From: Candidatus Woesearchaeota archaeon
Lineage (GTDB): Archaea; Nanobdellota; Nanobdellia; UBA10117; JABICX01
Direction of reading: 5' to 3'
Length of the DNA stretch: 64,000 nt
Assembly (NCBI GenBank): GCA_018652045.1
Contig: JABICX010000010.1
Location: forward strand, 114-64,113
Below, in pieces: positions 12,210 to 52,719 of this stretch. The position numbers and the translations under genes are program-made. The stretch's first letter is position 1; each line of letters begins with the position of its first letter. Under the pieces are notes generated by a model that was not told where the DNA came from, did not search any database, and saw nothing but the letters and a program-made list of their open reading frames with translations.

Positions 12210-12547
12210 ATTTTATCGCAATACAGCTGATTGGTATTGGATATGGAATTGGTATGTTCTATCTGGCTTTTGATAGTTGGAAGCGACACCAGCTAACAAA
12301 AGGGGATTTCACCGTATGGTCCTTAGCATGGCTAGGTTTTACTCTGGCACTGATATTTCCCAACATAATAACGAGAGTTAGAGAGGTCTTACACATCGGT
12401 GGTGGACAGGTGCCGTTCTTTACTATTGCAGGATTTATGTTCCTGACAGGTATTGTATTCTACCTATATCAGAAAGTGAGAATCAACTCAAGAAAACTTG
12501 AACAGATTGTTCAAAAGATAGCTTGGGATAAAATCAAAACTAGATAA
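12200..12547 (+). CDS. DUF2304-like small membrane protein
   Basis: 115 aa with 4 predicted TM segments. 10-nt overlap with the preceding GT2 gene, which is the usual genomic context of DUF2304. Confidence 0.5.
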   Translation: MGLDFIAIQLIGIGYGIGMFYLAFDSWKRHQLTKGDFTVWSLAWLGFTLALIFPNIITRVREVLHIGGGQVPFFTIAGFMFLTGIVFYLYQKVRINSRKLEQIVQKIAWDKIKTR

Positions 12548-33706: not shown

Positions 33707-33710
33707 GAAC

Positions 33711-33723
33711 TTCCATTAGAAAT
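33711..33723 (+). repeat. ORB-like element 1 (TTCCATTAGAAAT)
   Basis: Perfect 13-bp inverted partner at 33807-33819. Resembles the TTCCA-N3-GAAA(T) mini-ORB core. Confidence 0.6.
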
Positions 33724-33806
33724 AACCCTTATATATATTTATATGGCAAAAAATAGAATTACTCTAAAAGAGTTAACCTATAAAGTTTGAACCCTCTCAC
33801 TCCTTG

Positions 33807-33819
33807 ATTTCTAATGGAA
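33807..33819 (-). repeat. ORB-like element 2 (reverse complement of TTCCATTAGAAAT)
   Basis: ATTTCTAATGGAA on the plus strand. Followed by the run ctatataataatatgtttttttatatatatttatatatattt, a DUE candidate. Confidence 0.6.
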
Positions 33820-33986
33820 CTCGCTCTATATAATAATATGTTTTTTTATATATATTTATATATATTTACAATATAGTAAATAACGTTACAACTTATTTCA
33901 CGCTTTACGTTCTTTGATTTTAAAACGAATACTACGACGAGTAACGAAACAACAATTTTGAAAGTAAAAATGTTTTGAAGAAAGAG

Positions 33987-34354: not shown

Positions 34355-34486
34355 AGCATTTAAAGTTTCCTTTTTTGCACTATTGAAAAGAATGAATTGT
34401 AGACATGGACATGTGTGTGAAACATATATATAATTGAGTGATTAAACTAAACAATTCTTTAAAACATAGCGCTGAGGTCCTTGATC

Positions 34487-37400: not shown

Positions 37401-37960
37401 ACGAAGCTGCGATGGAGATGAAAGCACCGTGGGACATTAAGATCGATCAGATAAAACATCGGGTAGGTAAACCTGAACAATACGAAGGTATTGGTTATAC
37501 GCACCCCGTTAGTAATATGAACATTGGTATTCGTAACTCTGCATATAAATCATTACCAACCATGCTTGAGAAGATGGGTGGTCAGCTAAAGTTAGCACAA
37601 CAGATTCGTGCAGTAGACCTGGGAAAGGTTGCACAGTTGATTGTAGAGGGACATTTTGTGAGAGATATCAAAGGTAACTTGCGAAAGTTTACAAAACAAA
37701 CGTATCGCTGTACTTCATGTAATACTATCTATCGACGACTACCTTTGAATGGAACGTGTGATCAATGTAAGAAAGGTAACCTCGTTTTTACAATTGCAGA
37801 GGGAACGATAAAGAAGTATCTTGAACCAACTCTTAAGTTGATCGAGTATGAAGGTGTGTCTCCATTTATCAAACAGTCGATAGAACTTCTGAGTCAACGA
37901 GTTGAATCAGTGTTTGGTAGAGATAAGACTAAGCAGTTAGGTTTGGACAGCTTTAATTGA
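34487..37960 (+). CDS. dp2: DNA polymerase II (PolD) large subunit DP2
   Basis: About 1157 aa. Conserved PolD catalytic-core blocks (GRPVFGYP, GGFRLRYGRSR, LAPHTSAGIIGRIIGF, DGEETA, RRGGRSMDAPLVL) and Zn-finger clusters (CDKC..CETC, CPICKKK, CTSC..CDQC). The track start at 34481 is TTG; ATG is at 34487. No intein is apparent. Confidence 0.92.
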   Translation: MVGEIVCSPRIKKYFDRLDKETRTTHALATKAREVGFDPEHKVDILLAASVGKRVEGIIAVVEPRIVDSGVAERIFTLEKKYGPGDWRVGMVIAWEVANHQFFKMDKEEHALATGIRTGLAYTTNGVVSAPVEGLAAIKLRPRQDGKGEYISVYFAGPIRGAGATQQGVALIIADYVRVKKGLAKYDPTPDEVNRYYTEMIDYYERVERKQYKPTKEEMNWIIPNMPIEINGDPTAELEVSNYKNLPRVETNRIRGGLALVLTDGVVKYPKLWKQVSKWQDEFGIDWNWMKEYFKIKKKVRALDSAGEKTDESKNKNKLTPNFYYVSEIVAGRPVFGYPLETGGFRLRYGRSRLTGDGSWAVSPLSGRLLLDFLATGTQLRVERPGKSTALTMCDSIEGPIVKLENGNVVRLETEEQVKKLRSQVKEILFVGDILISHGDFNEQGTTLVPPGYCEEWWLLEIEKQEKDKGVDLRQVVGDLADRLKKDIFKTVPSFEDSLKISMKLNVPFHPYWTLHWKDISEEDYNNLVGWWLAKEHSLESESDKKVKRSLEILGCPHVVEKGKVVFAEEYAKVLNFFLKETSTGEDGLACVNKTSNVTQRDKSGTAIGVRMGRPEKCKVRPMKGTPHLLFPVGDEGGRLRTFQAAAQNGKVTAQFPIFYCDKCNLQTIYSRCETCRSLTKLYRICPICKKKTIDLKCHRPTQTYEKIALDVTKYINSARKVTNIPQIPTQIKGVRGMMNKDHFVEYFGKGLLRAKYNLPVNKDGTIRFDMSELGITHFKPKEIGLSIEKAKELGYDVDIKGAPLTHEEQILEIFPQDVVMPACPESPNELSDVVFMRIANFVDEELVKIYNQKPFYNVTKRADLIGQLVIGLAPHTSAGIIGRIIGFSETQGGFAHPYWHDAQRRDLDGEETAAFLLMDGFLNFSRQYLPDRRGGRSMDAPLVLSTKLNVEEIDDEVFDVDTGWRYPLYFYEAAMEMKAPWDIKIDQIKHRVGKPEQYEGIGYTHPVSNMNIGIRNSAYKSLPTMLEKMGGQLKLAQQIRAVDLGKVAQLIVEGHFVRDIKGNLRKFTKQTYRCTSCNTIYRRLPLNGTCDQCKKGNLVFTIAEGTIKKYLEPTLKLIEYEGVSPFIKQSIELLSQRVESVFGRDKTKQLGLDSFN

Positions 37961-39166
37961 AGTTTTTAACCCATATGTATTAAGTAGGATTTTAATTGCG
38001 AGCACAGTAATCGTTGCAATTGGCGCGCCTGCAAGTCCAATCTTTGAGATCAGGAAGATGTTCAGGGCGAGATTTACTACGATAGCAAGGATTGCGTCAA
38101 AAGTGAGAATTACAACCTTTCTCCGCGTCTCTTGTACCTGTCCAAGATAGATTGAGTTAATGAGTGAGTATATAACAAGTAGACTGGATGATATAACTAA
38201 CGACCAGATTAAGAATGAGTCTACCTTTGCGAACTCCGAACCAAACAAAAATACTACGAGATATGGTGCAGTTAGGCCAATGGCTAGCGCAAAAGGTAGT
38301 ATAAAACTTATCAGCTTTTTTACACTTCCTATGATGTTGAAGTCTTTTCGTGCAGAGGCGGTGATCATGACAAAAGGTATGACGTATGCAGATACCCGTA
38401 AGATGTTTATGTAGTTTGAAAAGCCAGTATAGTAACCAAGTTCACTAAAGTTTAGAACGTACTTGATCGAGATTCGATCGATGTAGTAGATGGAATGCAT
38501 ACCAATAAGCGCAAGAAAAAACGGCAAGCTTTTCTTGAAAAGTGGTTTAAAGTTAGCCTTTTGTGAACTTAATCGAGTAAGCTTTAGTTTAAATGGCACG
38601 AGCAGTAACATGGAGACTGTTGCGCTAAGTAATACTAACCAGAAGTTCTTCGAGAGTATTGCAATCAAGATGAAAAGGAAGACAAGTACTCGATTAAAAG
38701 TGAGGAATCTCATCGATACTTCATATCTTTCAGTTCTTCGGATCGCACCACTAAGTATTGTAAATACACTTATCATTAAACTGTAGCCAAAGATCAGCCA
38801 GAAGAAAAAGTTCAGTGCAGGATTAAGATCCAAGTAACTTGCGATTTGGTAGAAAACTAATGAAAATACGAACGATGCGATGATGACATAGACTAGGATT
38901 TTTGCAAGTAACTTTCTACTTAGTTGTTTTTCAGTTAGTTTCGCAATAGTATTTGCTAGACCAAAGCTTGCAAAAATATGTATTAAGTTTGTGATGCTAA
39001 GAAAGTATGAATACACACCAAACATTTCCTTGCCAAAGAATCGTGCAATAACTATGTTCGTAAGTAATCCGACACTTGTTGCTATGAAGTATATAACAAA
39101 AGTGGTACTGATGATAGAACCTGTTTTACCAAACACTTTGGTTGCAAGTGCATTAAGATTAGCCAT
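37937..39166 (-). CDS. oligosaccharide/polysaccharide flippase (MOP/Wzx family)
   Basis: 409 aa with about 12 TM segments and typical Wzx-like hydrophobic repeats. The 3' end overlaps the dp2 3' end by 24 nt (convergent). Confidence 0.7.
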   Translation of the reverse strand: MANLNALATKVFGKTGSIISTTFVIYFIATSVGLLTNIVIARFFGKEMFGVYSYFLSITNLIHIFASFGLANTIAKLTEKQLSRKLLAKILVYVIIASFVFSLVFYQIASYLDLNPALNFFFWLIFGYSLMISVFTILSGAIRRTERYEVSMRFLTFNRVLVFLFILIAILSKNFWLVLLSATVSMLLLVPFKLKLTRLSSQKANFKPLFKKSLPFFLALIGMHSIYYIDRISIKYVLNFSELGYYTGFSNYINILRVSAYVIPFVMITASARKDFNIIGSVKKLISFILPFALAIGLTAPYLVVFLFGSEFAKVDSFLIWSLVISSSLLVIYSLINSIYLGQVQETRRKVVILTFDAILAIVVNLALNIFLISKIGLAGAPIATITVLAIKILLNTYGLKTSIKAVQT

Positions 39167-40602
39167 TATTTAGTACGCATTATTTTGAAGACTTCTCGCC
39201 CGACTTTGGTACCCATCATGACACTCTTAACTTGCTCATATCTTTTTTCATCTCTTGCAAAAAGAACCCACAGTACACTACCAGTTACTTTGCCAAAACG
39301 GAACTTAAGGTGCATCTTTCGAGTTAGCGCAAACGCGATGTCCTCAGCCTTCTTTCTTTCAGCTACAGTAAACTCGGGCGTTTCAAAGACAGGCCTACTA
39401 GTGAGATTTGCAGTTTCAGATAGATATACTTCAGGCGGGTAGATAAATGTACCAAACTCTTTTACATACTCATAAACCTCAGTTCCAGGATATGGTATCA
39501 TGTTGCGGAAGTTTACATAACCAACCGGTAGTTTACGTGCGAAGTTTATACTACGCATAGCTTTCTCAAAAGTTTCAAAAGGATGACCTATGATAAAGTT
39601 GACAGAGCAAGCTATTCCAACCTTACGTGCCGCATTAAAAGTATTAATTGCATTTTCTAAAGTAACACCTTTTTTGATTTTAATTAGTGTTTCAGGATCT
39701 CCACTTTCTAACCCAAATGCCATATAGGTACATCCTGATTTCTTCATTTTTTTAAGTAGTTTATAGTTGGCCTTATCTGCACGTATGCCTGCACATAACC
39801 AACTGATTTTCATCCCACTTTTAATAATGAGTTCGCAGATCTTTTCTGCGCGATTTAGATCGAAACTAAAACAATCATCAACCATCTCAAAAGTGTGATA
39901 CCCCTTATCATACCATACTTGTAGTTCTTCAATTACTTTCTCTGGACTTCGAGGTCTAAAGTTCTGACCTAGACTTAACTTTACTGCGCAGAAAGTACAT
40001 CCAAAAGGACAGCCTCTAGATGTAGATATCGGCATACGCTTATCAACTGAACAATAGGTATACTTCTTAAGATCAAACGCGTCAAATGCTGGAAATGGTA
40101 GGCTATCCATATCCCAGATTGGTTGTCTTCGAGAGTTTTCAATAATTTTCTTACCGCTGCGATAGAGCAGGTTTTGTATATCTTTTGGCTTTTTTCCTTG
40201 CACAAGTTCTAGAAGTGCATGTTCACCTTCACCATATATTGCATAGTCTGCTTTGGTTTTTTCCATAACATCTTTGTGTGTTGAGGATACATGAACGCCA
40301 CCAACAATAACAGGTAACTTGGTTTCAACTTTCAACTTGTCAATCAATTTGTAAGTATTAACAAAATCATATGTAAACATAGTTACGCCAATAAGATCTG
40401 GATTGAACAGCTTGACCCGTTTTAGCAAATAATCAAAGGAGTAGTTGAGTTGCATATCAAGTATTTCTACAGCGATACCCTCTCTTTGTAAGAATGAAGT
40501 GAGACTTGCGATACCAACGTGCGGGAATAGTGCACCTGGATAGTTCGCATATATTTTCGGAATGACAAACAATATTCGTTTAGCTTTCATTTTTACTTCC
40601 AC
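39166..40602 (-). CDS. B12-binding-domain radical SAM enzyme (class B)
   Basis: N-terminal cobalamin-binding-type Rossmann domain (ILFVIP...IGVTMFT). CxxxCxxC cluster (SRGCPFGCTFCAV). 478 aa. Confidence 0.8.
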   Translation of the reverse strand: MEVKMKAKRILFVIPKIYANYPGALFPHVGIASLTSFLQREGIAVEILDMQLNYSFDYLLKRVKLFNPDLIGVTMFTYDFVNTYKLIDKLKVETKLPVIVGGVHVSSTHKDVMEKTKADYAIYGEGEHALLELVQGKKPKDIQNLLYRSGKKIIENSRRQPIWDMDSLPFPAFDAFDLKKYTYCSVDKRMPISTSRGCPFGCTFCAVKLSLGQNFRPRSPEKVIEELQVWYDKGYHTFEMVDDCFSFDLNRAEKICELIIKSGMKISWLCAGIRADKANYKLLKKMKKSGCTYMAFGLESGDPETLIKIKKGVTLENAINTFNAARKVGIACSVNFIIGHPFETFEKAMRSINFARKLPVGYVNFRNMIPYPGTEVYEYVKEFGTFIYPPEVYLSETANLTSRPVFETPEFTVAERKKAEDIAFALTRKMHLKFRFGKVTGSVLWVLFARDEKRYEQVKSVMMGTKVGREVFKIMRTK

Positions 40603-41134
40603 TCTTCAGCACGATTTTGGCTAACGTAAAGTAGCTCACCAACACATTTCTGATTAAATACATTTTGCTTCGGCGACATTTCGCGTTTAATAGCTTGTGA
40701 ATTTCACGGTCCATGTAGCAGGCTGGTTTATCGTATTTCTTTAATCTAACCTTTTTAACTTTTTGTATGCTCTTTGATAAGTTTCCGATGTCCTTGCAAT
40801 AGATGAAGCTTCCACTTTCTTTGGAAAGCGCTTCAAGAAACTCTACTTGATGAAGATCATTACGTTCTTTGTTAGCACACGAGATGAGTTTCTTATGCAT
40901 AGCAAGTAGCTCAAAAGTAGTTCCAGTACCGCCGTGTGCGATGATTAAGTTAGCTTGCTTGTAGTATTTTTCTAAGTTTGGTGCAAATCTAAACCATTTA
41001 CAGTTTAGTGGTTTGTAATCACCTGATCCGATTTGCATTGTAATCGGTGTTTTAAGTTTTGGTGCTAATCGGTCAACCTCTTTAATCAGCGCATCAAACT
41101 TACCTGTCCCGACCGTAACAAATATTCCCATCAA
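40580..41134 (-). CDS. Alg13-like glycosyltransferase subunit (GT28 C-terminal domain)
   Basis: IFVTVGTGKFDAL and IAHGGTGTTFELL are typical of Alg13/EpsF-type catalytic subunits. 4-nt overlap with the upstream Alg14-like gene. Confidence 0.75.
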   Translation of the reverse strand: MMGIFVTVGTGKFDALIKEVDRLAPKLKTPITMQIGSGDYKPLNCKWFRFAPNLEKYYKQANLIIAHGGTGTTFELLAMHKKLISCANKERNDLHQVEFLEALSKESGSFIYCKDIGNLSKSIQKVKKVRLKKYDKPACYMDREIHKLLNAKCRRSKMYLIRNVLVSYFTLAKIVLKSGSKNES

Positions 41135-41628
41135 CTTAACCTCCCAACAAATCGAGCATTTGCGTATTGTTTAAGTAACGGTTTCCATTGAACTAAGAAA
41201 AGATCGTCATCTGTGAAGAACGGAGCTAACTGCTTTCCAGATATCGACCGACTCTTTACTCGTGTGAGACTTTCAAAAAATACTGCTTTTGCGCCAAACA
41301 TATACTTTGCGAGAACAACAACGTGTTCACAAACCGCCGGACCACAACCAATAACTAGCACAGGTTTGATCTTCCAAAGCACATTTATTGCCTGCAGTGT
41401 TGATGGAACATATTTTAGAATGATCTTTAAGAGATTGGCGTCGGTCTTCAGACGCGTATCATATATATAAAAAACCTTGCCAGGAATCCTAATGCGACTC
41501 GCAGATGCTTTGTCTGTGTTAGCGATTATGTAGTTGTAATCATATCGGTGTCCGAGCTTGTCAATCAGTTCGAGCATCTGTCGAGTATGACCGCCTGAAC
41601 CGAGTACTACCGCTATCTTCGGTTTCAT
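41131..41628 (-). CDS. Alg14-like glycosyltransferase subunit
   Basis: VLGSGGHTRQM motif. 165 aa. Paired with the Alg13-like gene. Confidence 0.75.
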   Translation of the reverse strand: MKPKIAVVLGSGGHTRQMLELIDKLGHRYDYNYIIANTDKASASRIRIPGKVFYIYDTRLKTDANLLKIILKYVPSTLQAINVLWKIKPVLVIGCGPAVCEHVVVLAKYMFGAKAVFFESLTRVKSRSISGKQLAPFFTDDDLFLVQWKPLLKQYANARFVGRLS

Positions 41629-41717
41629 ATCGAGGTATTGTTAGTTCGAGTTAAAAGAATTTTGATACTATGTTCTACTTTCATAAGGTTTAATAAGTAA
41701 ATTTAGCATCTTTGTCC

Positions 41718-42146
41718 ATGAGTATTATGTTCTTTCCATTTAAATTAGCTAAAAGATTGTTAAAAGTGAGATTTATGCGGTACTTTACTATTGGAGTGGT
41801 TGCTACAGCAACAGATTGGTCTGTGTTTTATTTACTATCTGCGTTAGTTAGTATAAACTATCTAATTTCTTTAGCAATAGCATATTCATTAGGTGGCGTT
41901 GTTAATTTCTTTGGAAATAAGTTTTATACTTTTGATTGTAAATCTAAGAAAATCGTTCGACAGATGTCTGTCTTTTGGATATTTTTATGGATGTTCCTTG
42001 GAGTAAGTTTTGTATTAATGTATTTATTTGTAGATGTATTTATGCTTCATAAGATGTTAAGCCGAATAGCAACTACATTTATCGTGTTTGTACTTTTGTA
42101 TATAACACAACGCAGTGTTGTATTTAACAAGAAACATTTTGTGTGA
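41718..42146 (+). CDS. GtrA family membrane protein
   Basis: 4 TM segments. RYFTIGVVATATDWSVFYLL and GGVVNFFGNKFYTF are GtrA signatures. The track start at 41712 is TTG. Confidence 0.8.
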   Translation: MSIMFFPFKLAKRLLKVRFMRYFTIGVVATATDWSVFYLLSALVSINYLISLAIAYSLGGVVNFFGNKFYTFDCKSKKIVRQMSVFWIFLWMFLGVSFVLMYLFVDVFMLHKMLSRIATTFIVFVLLYITQRSVVFNKKHFV

Positions 42147-43422
42147 TGTCGTTTAGTATTTGATTGCTGATCTTTTTTGCAAGTTTAATGCTGTTGTTAA
42201 GGTCCCGGTCATCAGGATAGATTATGGAAGTGTTCGCAAGATACATGTTATTGTATAGTTTTACTTTAGGTTTAATCTTTGAGTAGTTCTTTACATATAT
42301 TGGTGTAGCATGTTTTTCACGGAATAGTTTATACTGTTTTATATTCTTATTGTCGAACATAAACGTTTGTTGTAGCTCGTTAGTGTATTTGTTTAGTATT
42401 TTTGCGTTAGATTGTTTATACGCATCACTATCTGGCGACACGTAGTCGAAAAGATATGTGATATAATTATTACGGCGTCTGTTTGGGATAAAGTTTGTAT
42501 GTTCAACCATACCTCCAAACGCCTTGGAGTCCACGATGTTTGTCCAATAAGTTTTACTAATTGGTTTACGTGTGTTTATAACAAGACATAGTGCGCATTG
42601 GTATCTGATTTTGTTAAGTTGTGTAACCGTACTTTTTGGAAGGTCAGTAATTGCGATAACTTGTGGATTGTGTATCGCAAAAACTACTTTATCATACTCA
42701 TTTCGTTTCGTTTTAACGCTAACTGAAATCTTTCCAGATTTAGTTGTTCGGACTTTCTGAACACGCGTTTTCTTATGAATCGTTACGGTTTTACTGAGGT
42801 CAACTTCCATGGCAGTGATAAGTTTTTGGAAGCTACCGTTAAGGTACCCCAGTACCTCTTTACTTAGGAATTTGCCACGAGAGTTTGCACGAGAACGGAA
42901 TCTACCCCAAATCCATGCCGCAGATATCTGTTCAGCTGCGTCCCCAAACTTTACGTTAAGTAATGGCTGCCATAGTAACGAGCACACTTTTTTCCCCGCG
43001 ATCTTTTTCATATAGTTAACTGCACTGACGTTTTCTATACTTCGCCAGGATTTGGTTTTAGTGTAGAAGACAGATAGACCGAATCGCATTTTGTCAATGA
43101 TATTAAAATGTGGGAAACGTAATAAATCAAAAGGTGTTGAGAACGGGTAAACTTTGTTTTTGTATAAAAGGCTCATTTTTGATTCAGACCAGATAATGTC
43201 TTGTTGTAGACCTAACTCTTGAATCAACTTTAGCAGATATCTGTCGCTTCTAAAAAAGTGATGGAAATACTTGTCTACCTGAAATCCAAAGTCATTGAAT
43301 GCGCCAGTAATACCTCCCAGTTCACCTTCGCTTTCAAAGAGAGTCACATCAATATTTTCTTTGGATAGATAATATGCAATAGATAGTCCTGTAATCCCTC
43401 CACCAATTATCGCAACTTTCAT
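42124..43422 (-). CDS. FAD/NAD(P)-binding oxidoreductase (amine-oxidase/protoporphyrinogen-oxidase-like Rossmann fold)
   Basis: N-terminal dinucleotide motif MKVAIIGGGITGLSIAYYL..V.LFE. 432 aa. 4-nt overlap with the upstream PHP gene. Confidence 0.7.
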   Translation of the reverse strand: MKVAIIGGGITGLSIAYYLSKENIDVTLFESEGELGGITGAFNDFGFQVDKYFHHFFRSDRYLLKLIQELGLQQDIIWSESKMSLLYKNKVYPFSTPFDLLRFPHFNIIDKMRFGLSVFYTKTKSWRSIENVSAVNYMKKIAGKKVCSLLWQPLLNVKFGDAAEQISAAWIWGRFRSRANSRGKFLSKEVLGYLNGSFQKLITAMEVDLSKTVTIHKKTRVQKVRTTKSGKISVSVKTKRNEYDKVVFAIHNPQVIAITDLPKSTVTQLNKIRYQCALCLVINTRKPISKTYWTNIVDSKAFGGMVEHTNFIPNRRRNNYITYLFDYVSPDSDAYKQSNAKILNKYTNELQQTFMFDNKNIKQYKLFREKHATPIYVKNYSKIKPKVKLYNNMYLANTSIIYPDDRDLNNSIKLAKKISNQILNDITQNVSC

Positions 43423-44033
43423 TGTTTCACCATATACTTGTACATTTTTGTGAGAGTCATGTTAATTAAGAACATAAAATTGTATCCTATGTGAACTTTG
43501 TTCTTGGTAAGGTCTGTATAGAAACTACCTAATTCCCATTTCCAATGTGCATCACTACCAGCAATTATATGTAAGTTATGTCTATTTGCAAAGCATCTTG
43601 CTCGATAGTTAAAGAGTGGGAAAGCACGACCATTTAGTTCAATATAATCAATGTACTTTAGCGAGCTTAATAATCGTTTTTTGTTTAGAACTGCTTCGGG
43701 GAATCTGAAGTAATCTTGAAAGTGTGGTATTGATATCTTAGCACCCTGACTGTGGAGCTCTTTTAGAACTTCTTCGAAACGAGTACTCTTTACTTCCTTA
43801 GTCATATGATAGCCAATAACTTCACCTGCGTCGGTTTTAATCTCACAACTTGGTATAAATGTAATTCCCGTTTCTTTAGCTACCTTTCGGGCTTGTTTCC
43901 AACCTCGCGTTGTGTTATGGTCTGTGAGTGCAAACCCATCCAATCCCTTTCGTTTTAGTATTTGGGCGATGGTGGAGATTTCTAGGTTGGAATGACCGGA
44001 ATACTTAGAATGTACGTGCATGTCTATTTTCAT
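43419..44033 (-). CDS. PHP-domain phosphoesterase
   Basis: MKIDMHVHSKYSGHS, ALTDHN and GSDAH motifs. The ATG at 44033 forms an ATGA overlap with the upstream UbiA stop. The track start at 44069 is probably over-extended. Confidence 0.75.
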   Translation of the reverse strand: MKIDMHVHSKYSGHSNLEISTIAQILKRKGLDGFALTDHNTTRGWKQARKVAKETGITFIPSCEIKTDAGEVIGYHMTKEVKSTRFEEVLKELHSQGAKISIPHFQDYFRFPEAVLNKKRLLSSLKYIDYIELNGRAFPLFNYRARCFANRHNLHIIAGSDAHWKWELGSFYTDLTKNKVHIGYNFMFLINMTLTKMYKYMVKQ

Positions 44034-44899
44034 AGGAAGTAAAGGATTACGAAGCAGCTTATTGCCCATAATGCAAAGGCGAGAACCATTGATATGTCCT
44101 TGAAGAAGAGCTCGTTCTTACCAATGATTGGGTGATTAATTGAAGAGAGGTAAAGATATCTGAATATGATATAGCTGACAAATATACTTGTACCAATCAT
44201 AAGTGGGTTGTCATGCGCAAGGAAACTATATAGAACATATATGAAAAACAACGACGCTGCAAGTACGAGTTGAAGACTGTGCAAGAACTCTTTGTTGTAT
44301 ATTTTGTAGATCTTTTTGTATTTTACTTTTGATGGAAGGGTTTCTAAATCATATTTTCTTTTGCCAGTTGTTAGGAAGATCGCGATTATAAACACAAGTA
44401 AGATTGTCCATGCAGATAGGAACGTGCTAATTATGTATGCGCCAGCTAATGTACGTACCATGAAGTTGAACCCAATAAAATACATGTCAATGATTGGAAT
44501 GTTCCTAAAGTAAACGGTGTACCACATTGTTGCAGTGAAGAGTGCTAGTGGAAATAGTATAAGTCCGGGTTTTATGATATACGCTAAAGTTATCGCAATA
44601 GTAAAAAGTGCTGCAGACAAAGTTAGTGATGCGCACGTGGATACTTTTCCAGAAGCAATCAGGCGATCTTTTTTAGCTGGATGTTTTTGGTCTTCTTTAG
44701 CATCGTAAAGATCATTGAGAATATAATATGCTGACGAGATGAGACATAGTGATATAAATCCAAGAACGACTTTGCTTAGAGCATCTATATTGAAGACCTG
44801 TGCAGCAAAGAATATTGGTAAGAAGATGAGGAGATTTTTATACCATTGCTTTACGCGCATCAGTTTTAATAGCATGGAAGTGGGTGAATCGTAAGACAT
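44030..44899 (-). CDS. UbiA-family prenyl-phosphate phosphoribosyltransferase-like enzyme (DPPR-synthase-like)
   Basis: N-terminal RVKQWYKNLLIFLPIFFA and NDLYDAKEDQKHPAKKDRLIASG. These match the R-x-x-QW-x-KN and ND..D...D..HP.K..R.IA.G signatures of decaprenyl-phosphate phosphoribosyltransferase-type UbiA proteins. 8-9 TM segments. Confidence 0.7.
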   Translation of the reverse strand: MSYDSPTSMLLKLMRVKQWYKNLLIFLPIFFAAQVFNIDALSKVVLGFISLCLISSAYYILNDLYDAKEDQKHPAKKDRLIASGKVSTCASLTLSAALFTIAITLAYIIKPGLILFPLALFTATMWYTVYFRNIPIIDMYFIGFNFMVRTLAGAYIISTFLSAWTILLVFIIAIFLTTGKRKYDLETLPSKVKYKKIYKIYNKEFLHSLQLVLAASLFFIYVLYSFLAHDNPLMIGTSIFVSYIIFRYLYLSSINHPIIGKNELFFKDISMVLAFALWAISCFVILYFL

Positions 44900-44975
44900 A
44901 AAAAAGTTTGTTTAGTAAACCATTAGTTTACTGAGTAACCAAAATCCATAAAAGTCAGTGTTAGTTTTGGTTAGT

Positions 44976-46517
44976 ATGAAGTTCGGTAACCAACTTGTAG
45001 CATTTTTAGACCAGCGCTATAATCAAGCGTTTTTAGTTGTTTTACTGGCAGGAGTACTTTTACGATTAAAGTATTTCTTTATGGAGAGTATCTGGAACGA
45101 TGCTTCAGTGCACCTTTGGTACGCACTTAAATTTTTGAGACAACCTTCATTTATGTTTTCGTACTCGTTTCTATCAGGGGATTATGTAGTACCGCAGTTC
45201 ATAACCGCTTTCTTCTACATATTTACGCAAGACATCTTTGTTGCTGGAAAGCTTATGGCATTGTTCTATGCAATTGTAGGTATATTCTTTATGTATCTTC
45301 TGGGAAGTGAGCTTAAGGATAAACAATTCGGTTTAATTGCTGCTTTAGTGTTCGCGTTTAATCCGTTGTTTTGGTTTTATAGTGTACGTCCACTTGCAGA
45401 TGCACCATTAACTGCGATGTTTGTTGTTGGAGCATATTGTATTTTAAAACTTGAGAAAGAGCGAACTAGATTGTGGGCAATAATAACTGTTGGCGTGTTA
45501 TTCGCAGCAATGCTTACAAAGAACGCAGCAATTCTGTTGTTTATCGCGTTTTTGATATATTTCCCTACGTTCAAGTACAAAATACTAAAGGATACTGCAG
45601 TGCGTTTCGCATATCTACTTGCTGTGGGTTTATTTGTACTTGCTAATCTTGTGTATTATGCTTTATTTAGAGCTAATCTTGTGTATGAAGTATTTATTGC
45701 GAAGATTATTAATCAAGAAGGTCTTTTGCAGGGCTTTGAAGCGATATCATACCTACCACATCTACTATCTTGGTATGTTTTGATCTTTGCAATCATAGGA
45801 ACTTTCTTTGTTTTATTCTATCGTAAGAAGGAGTTTTATTTTATCTTGTTAGCACCCTTCATATTTTGGATATATATAGAGTTCTTTGTACGCAACGCTT
45901 TTGATAGATATATGCTTCCGGTAGTGCCATTTATTATTTTGTTAGCTGTTTTCGGAATCATTGAGCTATCGGAGCTAGCTAAATTAGCAATAAAATCTAA
46001 GTACGTTAAGTTAGCAATCATCGCAGTTGTTGTTATCCTCATTTGTTTTAACTATTATCAGTATGGTAGCGCCTTAACCGATTCAAAAGTAGAGTCTTAT
46101 GTTGGTTATGCTGAAGCAGGAGACTGGGTAAAGGCGAATGTTCCTGAAACTAACGCAGTGCTTTTTGCAGGATCCTGGCGATCTATGCGAACATTTTCAG
46201 AACGAGAGACGGTTGATAGTTATCTTGACGCACAGGACGGGAACCTCGTTAATCTAAGATCTGATCGCTATTTTAATAGTCGAGAGGTGTTCGAAGCAGA
46301 CTTAGTAAAAGCATTATCTGATGGAAAACAAGTTTATCTGGAAATTGATATTTGGGAATATGCACAGCCAAGTTGGTACTTCCCACTGACACAAGAGAGC
46401 GTAAACTATTTCCAAACATTGGGTTTTGTCCCAGCGAATATCATTGAGTATGAACTAACTACTCAACAAGGTTTGCAAAAGATGCCAGTTATACTTATTC
46501 TTAAGCACGGTAATTAA
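44976..46517 (+). CDS. GT-C fold glycosyltransferase (ArnT/PMT, GT39/GT83-like)
   Basis: Multi-TM N-terminal region with an acidic first loop, plus a soluble C-terminal domain. The track start at 44958 is GTG; ATG (MKFGNQ) is at 44976. Confidence 0.65.
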   Translation: MKFGNQLVAFLDQRYNQAFLVVLLAGVLLRLKYFFMESIWNDASVHLWYALKFLRQPSFMFSYSFLSGDYVVPQFITAFFYIFTQDIFVAGKLMALFYAIVGIFFMYLLGSELKDKQFGLIAALVFAFNPLFWFYSVRPLADAPLTAMFVVGAYCILKLEKERTRLWAIITVGVLFAAMLTKNAAILLFIAFLIYFPTFKYKILKDTAVRFAYLLAVGLFVLANLVYYALFRANLVYEVFIAKIINQEGLLQGFEAISYLPHLLSWYVLIFAIIGTFFVLFYRKKEFYFILLAPFIFWIYIEFFVRNAFDRYMLPVVPFIILLAVFGIIELSELAKLAIKSKYVKLAIIAVVVILICFNYYQYGSALTDSKVESYVGYAEAGDWVKANVPETNAVLFAGSWRSMRTFSERETVDSYLDAQDGNLVNLRSDRYFNSREVFEADLVKALSDGKQVYLEIDIWEYAQPSWYFPLTQESVNYFQTLGFVPANIIEYELTTQQGLQKMPVILILKHGN

Positions 46518-46567
46518 GTAGGTTTGATTATCATAAATGTTTTATAACTACTGTTTGGTTTTAGAGC

Positions 46568-47611
46568 ATGCGTATTAAGACAGTATTAGTGACTGGCAGT
46601 TCTGGTTTTTTAGGAATAAATTTGTGTCGTTATCTGCACGCAAAAGGATACAAGCTAAAAGGCATGGATGTTGCAGAGTTTGATTACGAAGACATGAAAC
46701 CACATGTTGATTTTTATCGAGGTGATATTTGTAAACTTGACGATGTACGTAAGGTTATGAAAGATGTTGATATTGTTGTGCATGCAGCAGCAGCACTTCC
46801 GAAGTATACTACTTCAGAGATCTTCAATACAGATGTTGAGGGTACGCGTAACGTTCTTTCCGTAGCAGAAGAGTTTAAGGTAGAACGCGTTGTATTTATA
46901 TCGTCTACCGCAGTTTATGGTATCCCAAAGACTTGCCCAATAACTGAGAATAGTGTGTTAAGTATTATCGGTCCATATGCAAAAGCTAAAGCTATTGCTG
47001 AACAGCTTTGCGTTGATTATCGCAAAAAAGGCATGACTATTTCAGTGTTACGTCCAATAACGTTTGTTGGACCTGAACGATTGGGTGTTATGGCCGTGTA
47101 TTATGATTGGATCAAACGAAACAAAAATATCCCAATTATTGGATCAGGTAAAAATAAGTTTCAGTTATTAGACGTAGAAGATTTCAGTCAAGCAATATAT
47201 TTGTGTATGATTAAACCAAAATCAAAAGTTAATACTTTGTTTAATATTGGTTCTAAGAATTTTACAACGATGCGTGAAGACTTTGGAGAGATTCTAAACT
47301 ACGTTGGATCAAAAAAGAAGATCGTTCCACTACCTACAGAATTAATCTTACCGTTACTTCGCGTGTTTGAGTTGTTGAATATATCTCCGTTATACAATTG
47401 GATGTGTCAGATTGCTTCAAAAGATGTCTACGTATCGATAGATAAAGCAGAGCGGGTGCTTGGATTTAAACCAAAGTACTCTTCTAAGCAAGCACTTGTA
47501 AGAAACTATCAATGGTATGTGGATAATTTGAATAGCTTTAAATCACAAGGTGTATCACATCGAGTTCCGTGGAATCAAGGCATCTTAAAGATCGTTAGCT
47601 GGCTGTTTTGA
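46568..47611 (+). CDS. NAD-dependent epimerase/dehydratase (extended SDR)
   Basis: VLVTGSSGFLG glycine motif. Catalytic YAKAK (YxxxK). 347 aa. Confidence 0.85.
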   Translation: MRIKTVLVTGSSGFLGINLCRYLHAKGYKLKGMDVAEFDYEDMKPHVDFYRGDICKLDDVRKVMKDVDIVVHAAAALPKYTTSEIFNTDVEGTRNVLSVAEEFKVERVVFISSTAVYGIPKTCPITENSVLSIIGPYAKAKAIAEQLCVDYRKKGMTISVLRPITFVGPERLGVMAVYYDWIKRNKNIPIIGSGKNKFQLLDVEDFSQAIYLCMIKPKSKVNTLFNIGSKNFTTMREDFGEILNYVGSKKKIVPLPTELILPLLRVFELLNISPLYNWMCQIASKDVYVSIDKAERVLGFKPKYSSKQALVRNYQWYVDNLNSFKSQGVSHRVPWNQGILKIVSWLF

Positions 47612-47664
47612 TTAGTATAACCAACCATACTTAATTTTATAAGCCGAATTTTAGATAGAGTCTT

Positions 47665-49287
47665 ATGCGGTTTAATCGATCACATGTCCTGTTGTTTCTG
47701 ATTTTGTTACTAACACTTGTTATTCGAATACCAGGTATTGACCAAGCGTTGTTTGGTGATGAGCAAGATTTAGTTGTTGGTGTGTACGCTCATGAGGCTT
47801 TTGGATTTAATCCAATTGTTAGTCATGCTCCGCTTGCGTCGTGGATATTTCAAGCAATCGGAATGCTTTGCCAATCGATTTGGTGCTTTAGATTGTTTAT
47901 GGCGTTTTTGGGAACCGTAACGATTTTACTGATTTTTATGATTGGTAAAAAAGTATACAATACTCGAGCAGGACTTGCTGCAAGCCTAATCGCAAGCCTA
48001 TCTTTTTACCATGTTCTCGCATCTAACCAACTTGCAGATGATGGTGCACTAGCACTTATGTTTTACTCCTTGTTTTTCTATGTGTATATACATTATCGGG
48101 AGAATCCTTCAAACCGACTAGCTGTGTCGTTAGGTATCATCTTCGGACTTGCTTTGATTACAAAAGAAACGTCTATCTTCATGTTAGCGATCGTTGCGAT
48201 ATATGAATCGCTTGAGTTAGTACGTAGTTCAGCAAGTATAACTACATGGTTTTCACGAATCAAAATGTATGTTCCTGTTGCTTCGATTGGAGCGTTGTTT
48301 GTTGCAGGTTTTTTAACTCTCGCATATATTGCAAATACTACTTTGTTAGGTAAGATTTTGCAGAGAAGTGGTGGAAATATTGGTGTAGGTGTTTCTTTTT
48401 TAGGAATAAGTATGTTTCTGTTTTGGGCTACACCGTTTCTTATTGGATTGTTTCTAATAGCCACGTTAGATCGAGATAGACGTAATGATTTGTTTATAAT
48501 TTGGTTCGCAATAATCTTTGTGTTTTACTCGTTCTTTGTGAAGCAAGGAGACTACAGTCGATATTACATGAACTTAATCATACCAATGTCGCTAGTTGCT
48601 GGGAACTTTCTTGGGCGAGTTAAGTTTAGAAAGATACATCTTATGTTTGGATCTGCAATCGCCGCAGCGTATTATATTTTACTTACTTTGTTATCTCGAG
48701 AGACTTTCCAGTATGTTCCAAGAGATATGAATTTGTATATATCCAAGATACAAAGTTTAGATTTTAGCTTTATGTTCTCATATGTTAGTAGTTCGGGTCC
48801 ATATGTGCTTCTACCATTCAACACAATTGTGCTGACCTTTGTAGCGTGTGCATCGTTGTTTTTGTTATATATCGTAGTACCTAAAAAAGTTAAGACATGT
48901 TTATTGGTGAGTTTTATCGCTATAGCATTCACATTTAATATTTTCTTACTTAATCAGTACCTGTTTGCGTTAGATACACCAGATGTTAGCCAGACCGTTA
49001 CAGATTCGATTGAATATTATCAGGGCTTAGAGTCCGATGCTATCGTGTATTCTAATAACGACGCGTTACTGTTTATGTTAGATGCTAACTACTTGCGTAA
49101 GGATGGATTTTATTACGTTGGAAACTACGGCGAATCCCTTCCAAAAGTAACGAAAGGTAATATTTTGCTTTTAGATTACCCAACAATTCCTAGAGATAGT
49201 GAGTTATGGATTTGGGCAGAGAGTTGCGATCTACGTGAGCGTTTTAGCTCTGAAGGACAGGCATTCGTCTACATATATAGTTGCTAG
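47665..49287 (+). CDS. GT-C fold glycosyltransferase (ArnT/PMT-like), second copy
   Basis: Polytopic. RIPGIDQALFGDEQD first-loop acidic motif, typical of polyprenyl-phosphate-sugar-dependent GT-C enzymes. Confidence 0.65.
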   Translation: MRFNRSHVLLFLILLLTLVIRIPGIDQALFGDEQDLVVGVYAHEAFGFNPIVSHAPLASWIFQAIGMLCQSIWCFRLFMAFLGTVTILLIFMIGKKVYNTRAGLAASLIASLSFYHVLASNQLADDGALALMFYSLFFYVYIHYRENPSNRLAVSLGIIFGLALITKETSIFMLAIVAIYESLELVRSSASITTWFSRIKMYVPVASIGALFVAGFLTLAYIANTTLLGKILQRSGGNIGVGVSFLGISMFLFWATPFLIGLFLIATLDRDRRNDLFIIWFAIIFVFYSFFVKQGDYSRYYMNLIIPMSLVAGNFLGRVKFRKIHLMFGSAIAAAYYILLTLLSRETFQYVPRDMNLYISKIQSLDFSFMFSYVSSSGPYVLLPFNTIVLTFVACASLFLLYIVVPKKVKTCLLVSFIAIAFTFNIFLLNQYLFALDTPDVSQTVTDSIEYYQGLESDAIVYSNNDALLFMLDANYLRKDGFYYVGNYGESLPKVTKGNILLLDYPTIPRDSELWIWAESCDLRERFSSEGQAFVYIYSC

Positions 49288-49916: not shown

Positions 49917-51671
49917 ATGTATATTTTAGGAATCTCTTGTTATTATCATGATGCGTCGGCAGCGCTCCTAAAAGATGGAGTTATCGTAGCTGCTGCAGAA
50001 GAAGAACGATTTACGCGGAAGAAACATGATATTAGTTTTCCAACTAACGCGATAAACTATTGTTTGAAGGAGGTAGGTATATCTGCAGATAAACTTGATT
50101 ACGTAACTTTTTACGAAAAACCTTTCTTAAAGTTTGAACGGATTTTATATCAACACATAACTATGTTTCCACGTAGTTTCTGGTCGTTTTACAAGACAGT
50201 ACCTTCATGGGTAAATGAGCGTCTACGAATACGTCGAATGTTAAAGAAAACGTTAAAGTATGACGGAAAAGTTTTCTTTGTAGAACATCATCAAGCACAT
50301 GCAGCATCTTCATATCTAATAAGTCCTTTTGACAAAGCCGCATTGTTAACTGTTGATGGTGTTGGTGAATGGGCTACAACAACCTTTGGATATGCTAAAG
50401 GAACAGATTTGAAGATTATGAAGGAGATTAACTTTCCACATTCATTGGGTTTGTTATATAGCGCAGTAACTGCCTATCTTGGTTTTAAGGTAAATAATTC
50501 AGAGTATAAGGTCATGGGTTTAAGTCCATATGGAAATCGAACAAAGTCTAACCCATATTATGCTAAGATGCGTAAGTTGATTGATATTAAACCTGATGGA
50601 AGTTATGCTTTAGATATGAGTTACTTTGTTTATCATTATAAAATGTCTATGCCAAGCTCTAAGTTTGTCAAAGTGTTTGGACCTACACGTAAATGGAGCG
50701 ATCCTTTAACAAAGCGACACAAAGATATTTCTGCAGCATTACAGATGGTAACTGAAGAAGCTATCTTTGCGATGCTGAATAGTCTATACAAAGAGACAAA
50801 GTGTACGAATCTGTGTATAGCGGGCGGGTGCGCACTTAATAGTGTTGCTAATGGTAAACTCTTACGAAATACGCCATTTAAGAAAATCTATATTCAACCA
50901 TCTGCGGGAGATGGTGGCACAAGTATGGGCGCAGCACTTTATACCTATAATGTAATACTTGGAAAAAAGAAACGTTATGTTTTAACTGACGCGTTCTTTG
51001 GACCGCAGTTTACTGATCGACAGATTAAGAAGTTCTTAGATCGGAACAAGATTAAGTATACACAGTTTAAGAGCGATAAAGAGTTAGTCAAGACGGTTGC
51101 TTCGTTGATTAAGACTGAGAATGTTATTGGCTGGTTCCAAGGAAGAATGGAATGGGGACCTCGTGCATTGGGTGCTAGAAGCATATTATCTGATCCAACA
51201 AATCCAAAGATGCAAGATATCCTAAACTTAAAAGTAAAACATCGAGAGAAGTTTAGACCTTTTGCACCCGTTATCTGTGCAGATGATGCTAAAACTTATT
51301 TTGAGTGTGATGAACCTGTGCCAGTTCCAACCGACTTTATGTTAATGGTTTATCCAATTAAGAAGTTCGCACGATCTAAAGTACCCTCAATAACACACGT
51401 TGACGGATCGGGTAGATTACAGACGATCCGCCGAAAAGATAATCAACTTTATTATGATCTGATCAAAGAGTTCGGCAAGATATCAAAAATACCGATCTTG
51501 ATTAATACTTCATTCAATATCCGTGGCGAGCCAATCGTATGTACGCCATTCCATGCATATCGTTGTATGATGGGAACTGGAATTGATTATCTAGTTATGA
51601 ATCGGTTCTTTATCGGTCGAGCAGATAACCCACAACACATGTGGGATAGTGAGAGCCATGCGAAGGATTGA
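49917..51671 (+). CDS. carbamoyltransferase (NodU/CmcH family)
   Basis: MYILGISCYYHDASAALLKDG, EERFTRKKHD and HHQAHAASS. C-terminal domain GRMEWGPRALGARSIL and TSFNIRGEPIV. The track start at 49893 is TTG. Confidence 0.9.
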   Translation: MYILGISCYYHDASAALLKDGVIVAAAEEERFTRKKHDISFPTNAINYCLKEVGISADKLDYVTFYEKPFLKFERILYQHITMFPRSFWSFYKTVPSWVNERLRIRRMLKKTLKYDGKVFFVEHHQAHAASSYLISPFDKAALLTVDGVGEWATTTFGYAKGTDLKIMKEINFPHSLGLLYSAVTAYLGFKVNNSEYKVMGLSPYGNRTKSNPYYAKMRKLIDIKPDGSYALDMSYFVYHYKMSMPSSKFVKVFGPTRKWSDPLTKRHKDISAALQMVTEEAIFAMLNSLYKETKCTNLCIAGGCALNSVANGKLLRNTPFKKIYIQPSAGDGGTSMGAALYTYNVILGKKKRYVLTDAFFGPQFTDRQIKKFLDRNKIKYTQFKSDKELVKTVASLIKTENVIGWFQGRMEWGPRALGARSILSDPTNPKMQDILNLKVKHREKFRPFAPVICADDAKTYFECDEPVPVPTDFMLMVYPIKKFARSKVPSITHVDGSGRLQTIRRKDNQLYYDLIKEFGKISKIPILINTSFNIRGEPIVCTPFHAYRCMMGTGIDYLVMNRFFIGRADNPQHMWDSESHAKD

Positions 51672-51678
51672 TTATTAC

Positions 51679-52719
51679 ATGTTGAAAGTGAGACAGATGT
51701 TTATCAACCTAGTTTTGCTAGCTTTTGTTTTAGTTATTATGTTAAGTTTATTTGAGGGTGGATTGCGTGTTATTTCGTCGCACGAACGTGATATGATATC
51801 AACACCAAATGGATACGTATACAAACCAAACTCGACAATAGTGTATGAGACCGAGCATTTTTCAAACACGTACGAAATTAATTCAGAAGGTTTTGTTGAT
51901 TATGATCATGAACTAACATCTGAAAAGTATCGTATTGCTTTACTTGGAGATTCGTTTATTGAGGCGACACAGGTTCCGTTTGATCTTGCATTACCAAGAC
52001 TTATGGAATCCGTGGATGTGGAAGTTATGAGTTTTGGTCTAAGTGCGATTGGAACAAGTCAGGAGTTAATCATCTTTAACGAGTATACTTCAAAGTATCG
52101 TCCAGATGCTGTTGTGTTGTTTTTCTTTGCAGGAAATGATTTGATAAACAATCATTACGACTTGCAAGATGATGTATATCGTCCATACTATGTTCTTGAA
52201 GATGGTGAACTTCAGTTAGTGCGATATGAACCAACATTACGTGATCGTGCAATAAAGTTAGCTAAGAAAAGTTATGCTATACGGTTCTTTAACACAAAGT
52301 TTCAGATACTTTTAGGTACTAAGAATACGCAGGGTGGCGCAGTTGCAAAGTATTATGTTTATGATGATGAGTGGCCCAAAGCATATGTTGAATCTTGGGA
52401 GGTTACACAAAAAGTTATCTTACAGCTTCAACAAGATGTTGAGAAAGATGGCGCAGAGTTTTTGTTAGTTGTTGTTAATGGTCCCGAACATGTTGACTCT
52501 ACGATTCGAGAGGAGGTAGAAGGATTAATTGGTACGCCACTAAACTGGACCCTACCAAATGATAAAATGCAAGTTTTCTGTGAGACTAATGAGATACATT
52601 GTATTGATCTAAAAGACCATTTCGTACAAGCTTCTTTGCACATAGAAGGCAATGGACATTGGAGTGAAGAAGGACATCGTTTAGTTTCAGAAGTTGTATT
52701 AGACGCACTTCGCTATTGA
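51679..52719 (+). CDS. membrane-anchored SGNH/GDSL-type hydrolase or acyl-esterase
   Basis: N-terminal TM (FINLVLLAFVLVIMLSL). Block I RIALLGDSFIEA. Later GND block (FFAGNDLINN). C-terminal GHWSEEGH. The exact start is uncertain (51649 GTG, 51658, 51679 or 51697). Confidence 0.6.
   Translation: MLKVRQMFINLVLLAFVLVIMLSLFEGGLRVISSHERDMISTPNGYVYKPNSTIVYETEHFSNTYEINSEGFVDYDHELTSEKYRIALLGDSFIEATQVPFDLALPRLMESVDVEVMSFGLSAIGTSQELIIFNEYTSKYRPDAVVLFFFAGNDLINNHYDLQDDVYRPYYVLEDGELQLVRYEPTLRDRAIKLAKKSYAIRFFNTKFQILLGTKNTQGGAVAKYYVYDDEWPKAYVESWEVTQKVILQLQQDVEKDGAEFLLVVVNGPEHVDSTIREEVEGLIGTPLNWTLPNDKMQVFCETNEIHCIDLKDHFVQASLHIEGNGHWSEEGHRLVSEVVLDALRY

Follow-up and report, generated by a model that had tools for sequence, protein, structure and literature searches.

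Lipid-linked pentofuranose donors derived from phosphoribosyl pyrophosphate (PRPP) are known from the mycobacterial cell wall, from Pseudomonas pilin and from enterobacterial O antigens. The mycobacterial decaprenyl-phosphoryl-arabinose (DPA) pathway comprises Rv3806c, the phosphatase Rv3807c, which belongs to the PAP2 family, DprE1/DprE2, Rv3789 and the Emb/Aft transferases. Lipid-phosphate-hexose synthase, flippase and outward-facing transferase are the three parts of AglD/AglR/AglS in Haloferax volcanii and of GtrA/GtrB/Gtr* in Shigella and Salmonella. Bacterial three-component pentofuranose systems are widespread, and their phosphatases, flippases and epimerases are interchangeable (Kelly et al. 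2024, PMC11127046). The system of Citrobacter youngae O1/O2 consists of ORF15-ORF14-ORF12 with or without ORF13, a single extended short-chain dehydrogenase/reductase (SDR) which turns lipid-phosphate-ribofuranose into lipid-phosphate-xylofuranose (PMC11127046). The same paper offers a bacterial precedent for every step proposed below and does not treat archaea. Here we describe seven adjacent genes at positions 41718-49287 of a 64,000-nucleotide stretch of DNA (the window) from contig JABICX010000010.1 of a Candidatus Woesearchaeota archaeon, whose products resemble the components of these systems.

Most likely, this cassette of a DPANN archaeon uses PRPP to assemble a sugar derived from ribose on a lipid carrier of the membrane and supplies it to outward-facing glycosyltransferases, with enzymes unrelated to the known ones at two of the steps. 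We lean, by a small degree, towards reading the whole locus as an archaeal PRPP-dependent "lipid-linked pentofuranose donor plus GT-C" system, GT-C being the glycosyltransferase fold C. A sequence-only reading of the window had compared the genes with the mycobacterial DPA pathway and proposed an independently assembled new route, undescribed in archaea. The shared logic stands, but the mycobacterial comparison was too narrow. Since this logic is known in mycobacteria and was generalised in bacteria in 2024 (PMC11127046), the locus is a predicted variant of the bacterial three-component systems and not a new route. We found no paper describing such a route in archaea, as had been supposed, and literature searches on DPANN with decaprenyl phosphoribosyltransferase, on archaeal PRPP/UbiA and on DUF2298 gave no relevant archaeal work. 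The features predicted from sequence to be new are the archaeal host, the PHP phosphatase and the PRK07233 flavoprotein.

The UbiA protein and its phosphoesterase partner

All seven open reading frames (ORFs) of the sequence-only reading were found again at the same positions, and Pfam confirmed their families. The first gene of the minus-strand operon (44030-44899, -) encodes a UbiA-superfamily protein (Pfam UbiA 6.3e-21) of the decaprenyl- or polyprenyl-phosphate phosphoribosyltransferase type (DPPRS/PPPRS). The signatures that had suggested this type, RVKQWYKNLL and NDLYDAKEDQKHPAKKDRLIASG, are both present in its translation. We placed the protein by scores of hidden Markov models (HMMs) and by a neighbour-joining (NJ) tree rooted on Rv3806c. 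The top three NCBIfam models all belong to DPPRS/PPPRS: NF008977 (1e-53), the HAD-UbiA fusion model NF006088 (2.5e-42) and NF008978 (1.9e-36). No model of another UbiA subfamily did better than 1.5e-15, with digeranylgeranylglyceryl phosphate (DGGGP) synthase at 5e-8, UbiA at 7e-6 and haem O synthase at 6e-5; the corresponding bit scores are 126-183 for the DPPRS/PPPRS models versus 20-57 for every other subfamily. In a search of all PDB sequences the sole match was Rv3806c (8j8j, E=3.5e-23), and no other solved UbiA-family structure appeared at E<=1. A DGGGP, quinone or haem prenyltransferase was rejected on these NCBIfam scores and the PDB search. The JGI annotation likewise names the protein decaprenyl-phosphate phosphoribosyltransferase. 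In the NJ tree it groups with an Altiarchaeota-type clade, not with the main Woesearchaeota clade.

The alignment to Rv3806c shows that 10 of the 11 residues of the PRPP/Mg site are identical or conservatively replaced. The Mg ligands N73 and D77 of Rv3806c correspond to N62 and D66, the 5'-phosphate ligands K28, Y70 and Y157 to K21, Y59 and F146, and the pyrophosphate cluster R22, K87, R90 and K143 with Y138 to R15, K76, R79 and R132 with Y127. The phosphoribose-binding sites of Rv3806c are not conserved across the wider UbiA superfamily (PMC10994848), and their retention is therefore specific evidence of PRPP use. The claim that this is an enzyme of the DPPR synthase type, and not a lipid-core, quinone or haem prenyltransferase, is thus upheld by the HMM ranking, the Rv3806c-only PDB match and the PRPP-site residues. 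We predict with high confidence that the protein carries out PRPP-dependent phosphoribosyl transfer to a lipid phosphate.

Bacterial relatives of the UbiA protein, with 33-37% identity, were seen in Chloroflexi (L166:7001-10915) and Goldbacteria (L167:7001-8802). Their neighbours are a GHMP kinase and a DAO-type flavoprotein, or a PfkB (ribokinase-like) kinase, and neither phosphatase nor GT-C was found near these two bacterial loci. This context suggests a different supply or use of pentose in those bacterial lineages.

The next gene of the operon (43419-44033, -, with the ORF open up to 44069) encodes a PHP-family metal phosphoesterase (Pfam PHP 4.3e-13 and PHP_C 2.5e-10). Its coupling to UbiA through an ATGA overlap is visible at the sequence level, the PHP start codon ATG occupying 44033-44031 and the UbiA stop codon TGA 44032-44030, and the overlap of UbiA and PHP in an Altiarchaeota homologue is likewise 4 nt. 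PHP in turn overlaps the following flavin adenine dinucleotide (FAD) oxidoreductase gene by 4 nt (43419-43422), as had been noted. The nearest solved relatives of the PHP protein, 3e0f and 2yb1, are ribose-phosphate phosphatases of the pAp-phosphatase type, and 19 orthologues all keep its metal ligands H18, H20, D50, H51, E76, H116, E144, D173 and H175. The enzyme belongs to PHP, not PAP2, and is indeed non-orthologous to Rv3807c. It is probably the 5'-phosphatase of polyprenyl-phosphate-ribose-5-phosphate, a chemistry predicted from family and position.

Gene linkage and probable exchange of a predicted donor cassette

When a single genome of each GTDB species was scanned, 368 UbiA relatives were found; the best 80 are all archaeal, mostly from Woesearchaeota and other DPANN lineages, plus Altiarchaeota. 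Linkage was evaluated in 79 other archaeal loci, where genes were called and clustered, cluster representatives were annotated by Pfam and local profiles were built. For each family we counted the loci carrying it near UbiA (up to 4 kb; 556 kb of DNA overall) and far away (4-10 kb; 611 kb overall), two amounts of DNA that are roughly equal. DUF362 was present near UbiA in 28 loci and far from it in none; the respective numbers were 28 and 15 for GT-C, 25 and 9 for SDR, 19 and 2 for PHP, 15 and 3 for the FAD oxidoreductase, 11 and 2 for small EamA pairs (ArnE/ArnF-like), 8 and 2 for DUF2304, 6 and 0 for LPG_synthase_TM, and 5 and 0 for PAP2. With PHP and PAP2 counted together, 24 of the 79 loci have a phosphatase no more than 4 kb from UbiA, versus 2 loci further away, and GT-C genes directly adjoin UbiA in many of them (for example L116, L133, L146, L148, L154 and L157). 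The archaeal PPPRS gene is thus recurrently found with a phosphatase, flippase-type small membrane proteins, GT-C and redox tailoring enzymes, and from the near and far counts UbiA loci therefore show the anatomy of a lipid-phosphate-sugar donor system. For PHP, these counts and the ATGA overlap bear out its description as a translationally coupled and recurrent partner of UbiA.

The end-user side of the window is formed by a GtrA-family small membrane protein and two GT-C proteins. The GtrA gene (41712/41718-42146, +) encodes a four-helix domain with a full-length match to GtrA_DPMS_TM (PF04138; 2.8e-19, profile positions 1-117 of 117). Contrary to the sequence-only reading it is not divergent: GtrA and the FAD oxidoreductase gene stand on opposite strands and converge, with a 23-nt overlap of their 3' ends. 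It is UbiA and GT-C1 that diverge, on either side of an AT-rich 58-bp spacer (44900-44957) in which the promoters of the two transcription units are presumably located. GT-C1 (44958-46517, +; Pfam PMT_2 9.6e-9) is a PMT_2/ArnT-like glycosyltransferase. Its AlphaFold2 model (pLDDT 92) has a C-terminal extracytoplasmic alpha/beta domain, and Foldseek matches to STT3, PglB, ArnT, DPY19, ALG9 and AftB confirm the GT-C fold; its orthologue cluster is present at 8 loci near UbiA versus 1 far. GT-C2 (47665-49287, +; Pfam PMT_2 7.3e-13) is a second PMT_2-type glycosyltransferase and matches a local GT-C profile at 2.5e-27. Neither GT-C1 nor GT-C2 gave a match among PDB sequences at the sequence level. 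By their families and the fold of GT-C1, GtrA and the two GT-C-fold proteins would complete the logic in which a lipid-phosphate-sugar donor is made, flipped and used by GT-C. By analogy, GtrA has about an even chance of being a lipid-phosphate-sugar flippase or an accessory protein, and it is fairly probable that the adjacent GT-Cs use a lipid-phosphate-pentose donor.

In other DPANN loci, paired EamA-type proteins of about 120 aa stand beside UbiA (L128:10464-11255, and also L102, L110, L117, L141 and L151). Their best matches are models of ArnE/ArnF, the undecaprenyl-phosphate-aminoarabinose flippase, and in these loci they probably do the flipping that would fall to GtrA in the window.

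In these other loci no gene is linked to UbiA more tightly than DUF362 (about 355 aa; for example L109:8869-9939, -, and L001:11463-12527, -), which is absent from the window. PHP is a frequent partner of DUF362, and a second paralogue frequently stands immediately upstream of the flavoprotein. The residues K40, N42, K152, H154, K164, H179, D205, D231 and D236 are invariant. An Fe-S protein was rejected, as there are no conserved cysteines, and no meaningful match was found among PDB sequences. DUF362 may be an alternative tailoring enzyme.

The seven genes adjoin a block of Alg14-like, Alg13-like (GT28 C-terminal), B12-binding radical SAM and Wzx-type flippase genes (37937-41628, -; identified by Pfam). 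This block is a conserved glycan-assembly backbone which receives the donor cassette. The closest homologue of GT-C1, with 58% identity, lies in a syntenic locus (P0249; JGI 3300072015) with the order Wzx, GT4, B12-radical SAM, Alg13, Alg14, EamA, GT-C1, methyltransferase, GT2 and a second PMT_2 GT-C, the last being a 544-aa protein in the position of GT-C2. Compared with the window (37937-49287), this locus has EamA in place of GtrA and FAD-PHP-UbiA, and a methyltransferase and GT2 in place of the SDR. Neither type of donor module lies near a more distant GT-C1 homologue. The presence of GT2 and EamA where the window has its cassette indicates that the GT-Cs take lipid-phosphate-monosaccharide donors. 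UbiA-PHP-FAD, with GtrA and SDR, behave as a swappable donor cassette, and we infer from synteny and the trees that, between conserved GT-C genes, a PRPP-based cassette took the place of one based on GT2. Such a swap supports a functional link between cassette and GT-Cs and shows this link to be of recent, not ancestral, origin.

Flavoprotein, SDR and the proposed pathway

The FAD oxidoreductase (42124-43422, -; Pfam Amino_oxidase/NAD_binding_8) is a member of the PRK07233 family: NF005560, which is annotated "hypothetical protein", is matched over residues 1-426 of 432 with 439.4 bits, above the cutoff of 252. The next-best HMMs are those of HpnE, protoporphyrinogen oxidase (PPO) and carotene desaturases. 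The AlphaFold2 model (pLDDT 93) found its best Foldseek matches in PPO/CgoX, phytoene desaturase (PDS; 5mog, TM 0.85) and monoamine oxidase (MAO). No vanillyl-alcohol oxidase (VAO)/DprE1 fold was among these matches, nor did Pfam give FAD_binding_4 or ALO. Homology to DprE1 was rejected on the Pfam domains and the PPO/PDS/MAO-type fold, and Pfam, NCBIfam and Foldseek agree with the earlier statement that the flavoenzyme is non-orthologous to DprE1. A likeness to UDP-galactopyranose mutase was also rejected: the sequence match is weak and N-terminal, and no such mutase occurs among the top 50 structural matches.

The family is large (1935 clusters at 50% identity, E<=1e-30), and no paper in the literature searched mentions it. 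In an NJ tree of sampled members two clades were distinguished. One consists of 17 UbiA-linked DPANN proteins; the other contains proteins which elsewhere show translational coupling to small GT2 synthases and have GT-C/DUF2298, LPG_synthase_TM or EamA genes on their flanks. The flavoprotein of the window falls in the GT2-coupled clade, closest to a GT2-coupled Altiarchaeota protein with which it shares 44% identity. Fusions were also seen, namely GtrA-FAD-GT2-GT2 (1447 aa, P0411), LPG_synthase_TM-FAD (824 aa) and FAD-SAM-methyltransferase (732 and 764 aa), the last three in P0347, P0293 and P0346. Contexts and fusions tie the PRK07233 family firmly to lipid-phosphate-sugar systems in general; the window enzyme may either oxidise the lipid-linked sugar or modify the carrier lipid. 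Since the family is coupled or fused elsewhere to GT2, GtrA and LPG_synthase_TM beside GT-C, the protein is at most a putative 2'-oxidase.

Near UbiA the flavoprotein is always accompanied, by SDR in 6 loci and by DUF362 in 9 (15 of 15), and orthologues of the window SDR co-occur with it there (Fisher odds ratio 15.5, p=0.002). This co-occurrence fits an oxidase/reductase pair. The SDR itself (46568-47611, +; 347 aa; Pfam Epimerase 4e-42) is an extended SDR of the NAD-dependent epimerase/dehydratase family with TGxxGxxG and YxxxK motifs and a C-terminal tail GV(S/T)HRVPWKQGILK that is conserved in 8 UbiA-linked orthologues. Its best matches are HpnA-like proteins (120 bits, below cutoff) and NDP-sugar epimerases/dehydratases; no DprE2 model was among the top matches. 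DprE2 (Rv3791) is a classical SDR of about 250 aa, and the window protein was rejected as its counterpart. It is a candidate epimerase or keto-reductase acting on a lipid-linked pentose. Given that a single SDR suffices in C. youngae (PMC11127046), the window SDR alone could therefore set the sugar. The analogy of the flavoprotein to DprE1 stands in so far as it co-occurs with SDR near UbiA, and is weakened by its position in a clade whose GT2-coupled members usually have no SDR nearby, so that it is one option only. A two-step epimerase formed by the flavoprotein and the SDR is a tentative proposal. More speculative is the wider suggestion that PRK07233 flavoproteins are an unrecognised, widespread part of lipid-phosphate-sugar/GT-C systems of bacteria and archaea which here, with the SDR, non-orthologously replace DprE1/DprE2 and make dolichyl-phosphate-arabinofuranose (or -xylofuranose).

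On this evidence the pathway would run as follows. The UbiA protein would move 5-phosphoribose from PRPP onto polyprenyl or dolichyl phosphate, and the PHP phosphoesterase would strip the 5'-phosphate to leave lipid-phosphate-ribofuranose. Both steps are well supported, the former by the sequence of the enzyme and the latter, for which the chemistry is predicted, by coupling and adjacency. The flavoprotein and the extended SDR may then tailor the lipid-linked sugar, likeliest by oxidation followed by reduction that epimerises ribose to arabinose (at C2) or xylose (at C3), or alternatively by SDR alone in the manner of C. youngae ORF13; this epimerisation is uncertain. By analogy, GtrA would help the donor cross to the outer side of the membrane, where GT-C1 and/or GT-C2, whose fold is established, would add the pentose to a glycan or glycoprotein outside the cell, probably to the glycan that the neighbouring Alg13/14-Wzx-AglB machinery makes.

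Several observations weigh against this pathway or parts of it. With 182.7 bits for NF008977 the UbiA protein does not reach the curated equivalog cutoff of 234, nor do the relatives in L128 (204.7 bits), and Q135 of Rv3806c, which contacts ribose O3, is replaced by T124, the sole differing residue of the PRPP/Mg site. A phosphatase within 4 kb is absent from 55 of the 79 loci, the enrichment of GT-C near UbiA is modest, and GT-C and PHP do not co-occur significantly (p=0.58). A GtrA homologue was found near UbiA in one other locus of the 79 (L138), possibly an undercount from weak searches; single-sequence and iterated searches of the fetched loci recovered almost no homologues of GtrA or GT-C2. 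The linkage foreseen in the sequence-only reading exceeds chance for parts of the module, as the near-versus-far enrichment indicates, and fails for the whole, the exact seven-gene arrangement and order being unique to this lineage and not kept in the 79 loci. The closest homologues of GT-C1 adjoin Alg14/Alg13/Wzx together with GT2 and EamA or without any donor synthase, not UbiA, and GT2-coupled flavoproteins usually have no SDR nearby, which speaks against a ribose-specific 2'-oxidase. To our knowledge, enzyme activities, lipids and glycans are not on record for any DPANN archaeon.

How far do these observations favour other explanations? That the UbiA protein is an ordinary prenyltransferase of the DGGGP synthase, quinone or haem O synthase type, only superficially like DPPR synthase, is in our view extremely improbable. 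Its superfamily membership would allow this, and so would the sub-cutoff DPPRS score, because of which the NCBI pipeline names the protein merely "UbiA prenyltransferase family protein"; set against this are the wide gap in bit scores to all other subfamilies, the single match among solved structures, the retained PRPP-specific residues and a neighbourhood of glycan genes and phosphatases instead of lipid-core or quinone genes. Chance neighbourhood is harder to dismiss. In a shuffled glycosylation island the product of UbiA-PHP-FAD could feed another process, and the GT-Cs could use another donor, such as dolichyl-phosphate-hexose from the GT2+DUF2304 pair at 11.5-12.5 kb. That pair and AglB do lie within the same window, the GT-C1/GT-C2 pair and the Alg13/14-radical SAM-Wzx block are kept without UbiA in relatives, and the non-significant association of GT-C with PHP points the same way. 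Yet service as a GT-C donor is the only known use of lipid-phosphate-pentose, GT-C stands directly beside UbiA in many loci, and the relative has its donor synthase (GT2) between its two GT-Cs, so that the cassette occupies the donor slot. We judge such an accidental assembly improbable.

The flavoprotein leaves more room for doubt. Enzymes related to it, PPO, phytoene desaturase and HpnE, act on hydrophobic substrates, and, with the pathway unchanged as far as lipid-phosphate-ribose, it may act on something shared by all lipid-phosphate-sugar systems: it may saturate or desaturate an isoprene unit of the polyprenyl carrier, or perform a generic sugar oxidation without epimerisation, in which case the SDR alone, or nothing, would set xylofuranose or ribofuranose. 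The grouping with GT2-coupled flavoproteins near GT-C/DUF2298 that lack SDR, all three kinds of fusion, phytoene desaturase as top structural match, the second-best HMMs and the sufficiency of one SDR for the conversion in C. youngae are in accord with such a role. Against it, the flavoprotein near UbiA is without exception joined by SDR or DUF362, its association with orthologues of the window SDR fits an oxidase/reductase pair, and a general carrier-lipid enzyme is not expected inside variable glycan cassettes. We hold a carrier-directed or generic oxidase to be rather unlikely, and retain the PRPP-dependent donor system with GT-C end users as the reading of the locus.

Genes for PolD DP1/DP2, Cdc6 and AglB mark the stretch as archaeal, and its proteins are identical to entries of Candidatus Woesearchaeota metagenome-assembled genomes (among them MBT3940937 and MBT3940940). 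Searches of the window for tRNA genes and Rfam features found none. The AglB/STT3 oligosaccharyltransferase (7945-10524) and a GT2 and DUF2304 pair (11532-12209 and 12095-12544) are located 30 kb upstream of the seven genes; the pair is a module of the lipid-phosphate-hexose-synthase type, and the window therefore holds at least two lipid-phosphate-sugar donor modules. At 33705-33870, between cdc6 (32438-33706, -) and the gene for the PolD large subunit (34481-37960, +) and just upstream of cdc6, a perfect 13-nt inverted repeat, TTCCATTAGAAAT / ATTTCTAATGGAA, surrounds an AT-rich stretch and looks like the origin-recognition-box elements of a replication origin. At 51649-52719 (+) a 356-aa ORF without a Pfam match at E<=0.001 has a carbamoyltransferase and an FkbM methyltransferase on either side.

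Implications and comparison with known systems

If the proposed pathway is true, PRPP-derived lipid-linked pentofuranose donors extend from bacteria to archaea, and unusual pentofuranose decorations are predicted on the surfaces of DPANN cells, which live host-attached. If the flavoprotein and SDR are indeed an epimerase, pentofuranose surface glycans would be a DPANN feature. PHP would be a third unrelated solution for the 5'-phosphatase, besides PAP2 and HAD, and the PRK07233 family and DUF362 genes would gain a testable context in lipid-phosphate-linked sugars or their carrier.

The system of C. youngae is similar to that predicted for the window in its PRPP-dependent polyprenyl-phosphate phosphoribosyltransferase of the UbiA type, its 5'-phosphatase, its flippase candidate, which is small or multi-pass, its GT-C transferase and an optional extended-SDR epimerase, and also in its cassette-like diversification of glycans. 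The phosphatase there is a fused HAD PRP domain and the flippase candidate a MATE protein, whereas the window has a separate PHP enzyme and a GtrA candidate. The window differs further in its archaeal host, its PMT_2-type GT-Cs and its extra PRK07233 flavoprotein, and its carrier is presumably dolichyl phosphate.

With the mycobacterial DPA pathway (Rv3806c, Rv3807c, DprE1/DprE2, Rv3789, Emb/Aft) the window shares a homologous first enzyme in which the PRPP site is kept, a GtrA-family protein like Rv3789, GT-C enzymes as known or predicted end users and the combination of a flavoprotein with an SDR. The phosphatase is PHP in the window and PAP2 in mycobacteria, although 5 other archaeal loci do have PAP2 beside UbiA. 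The fold of the flavoprotein is PPO/PDS in place of the VAO fold of DprE1, and the SDR is extended where DprE2 is classical. The mycobacterial product is arabinose; for the window, arabinose is one candidate product besides xylose and ribose.

The three-part logic at the outer face is also that of AglD/AglR/AglS and GtrA/GtrB/Gtr*, and the syntenic relative of the window (P0249) carries such a GT2-type cassette. In those systems a GT2 makes the donor from a nucleotide sugar, whereas in the window a UbiA-type enzyme would make it from PRPP.

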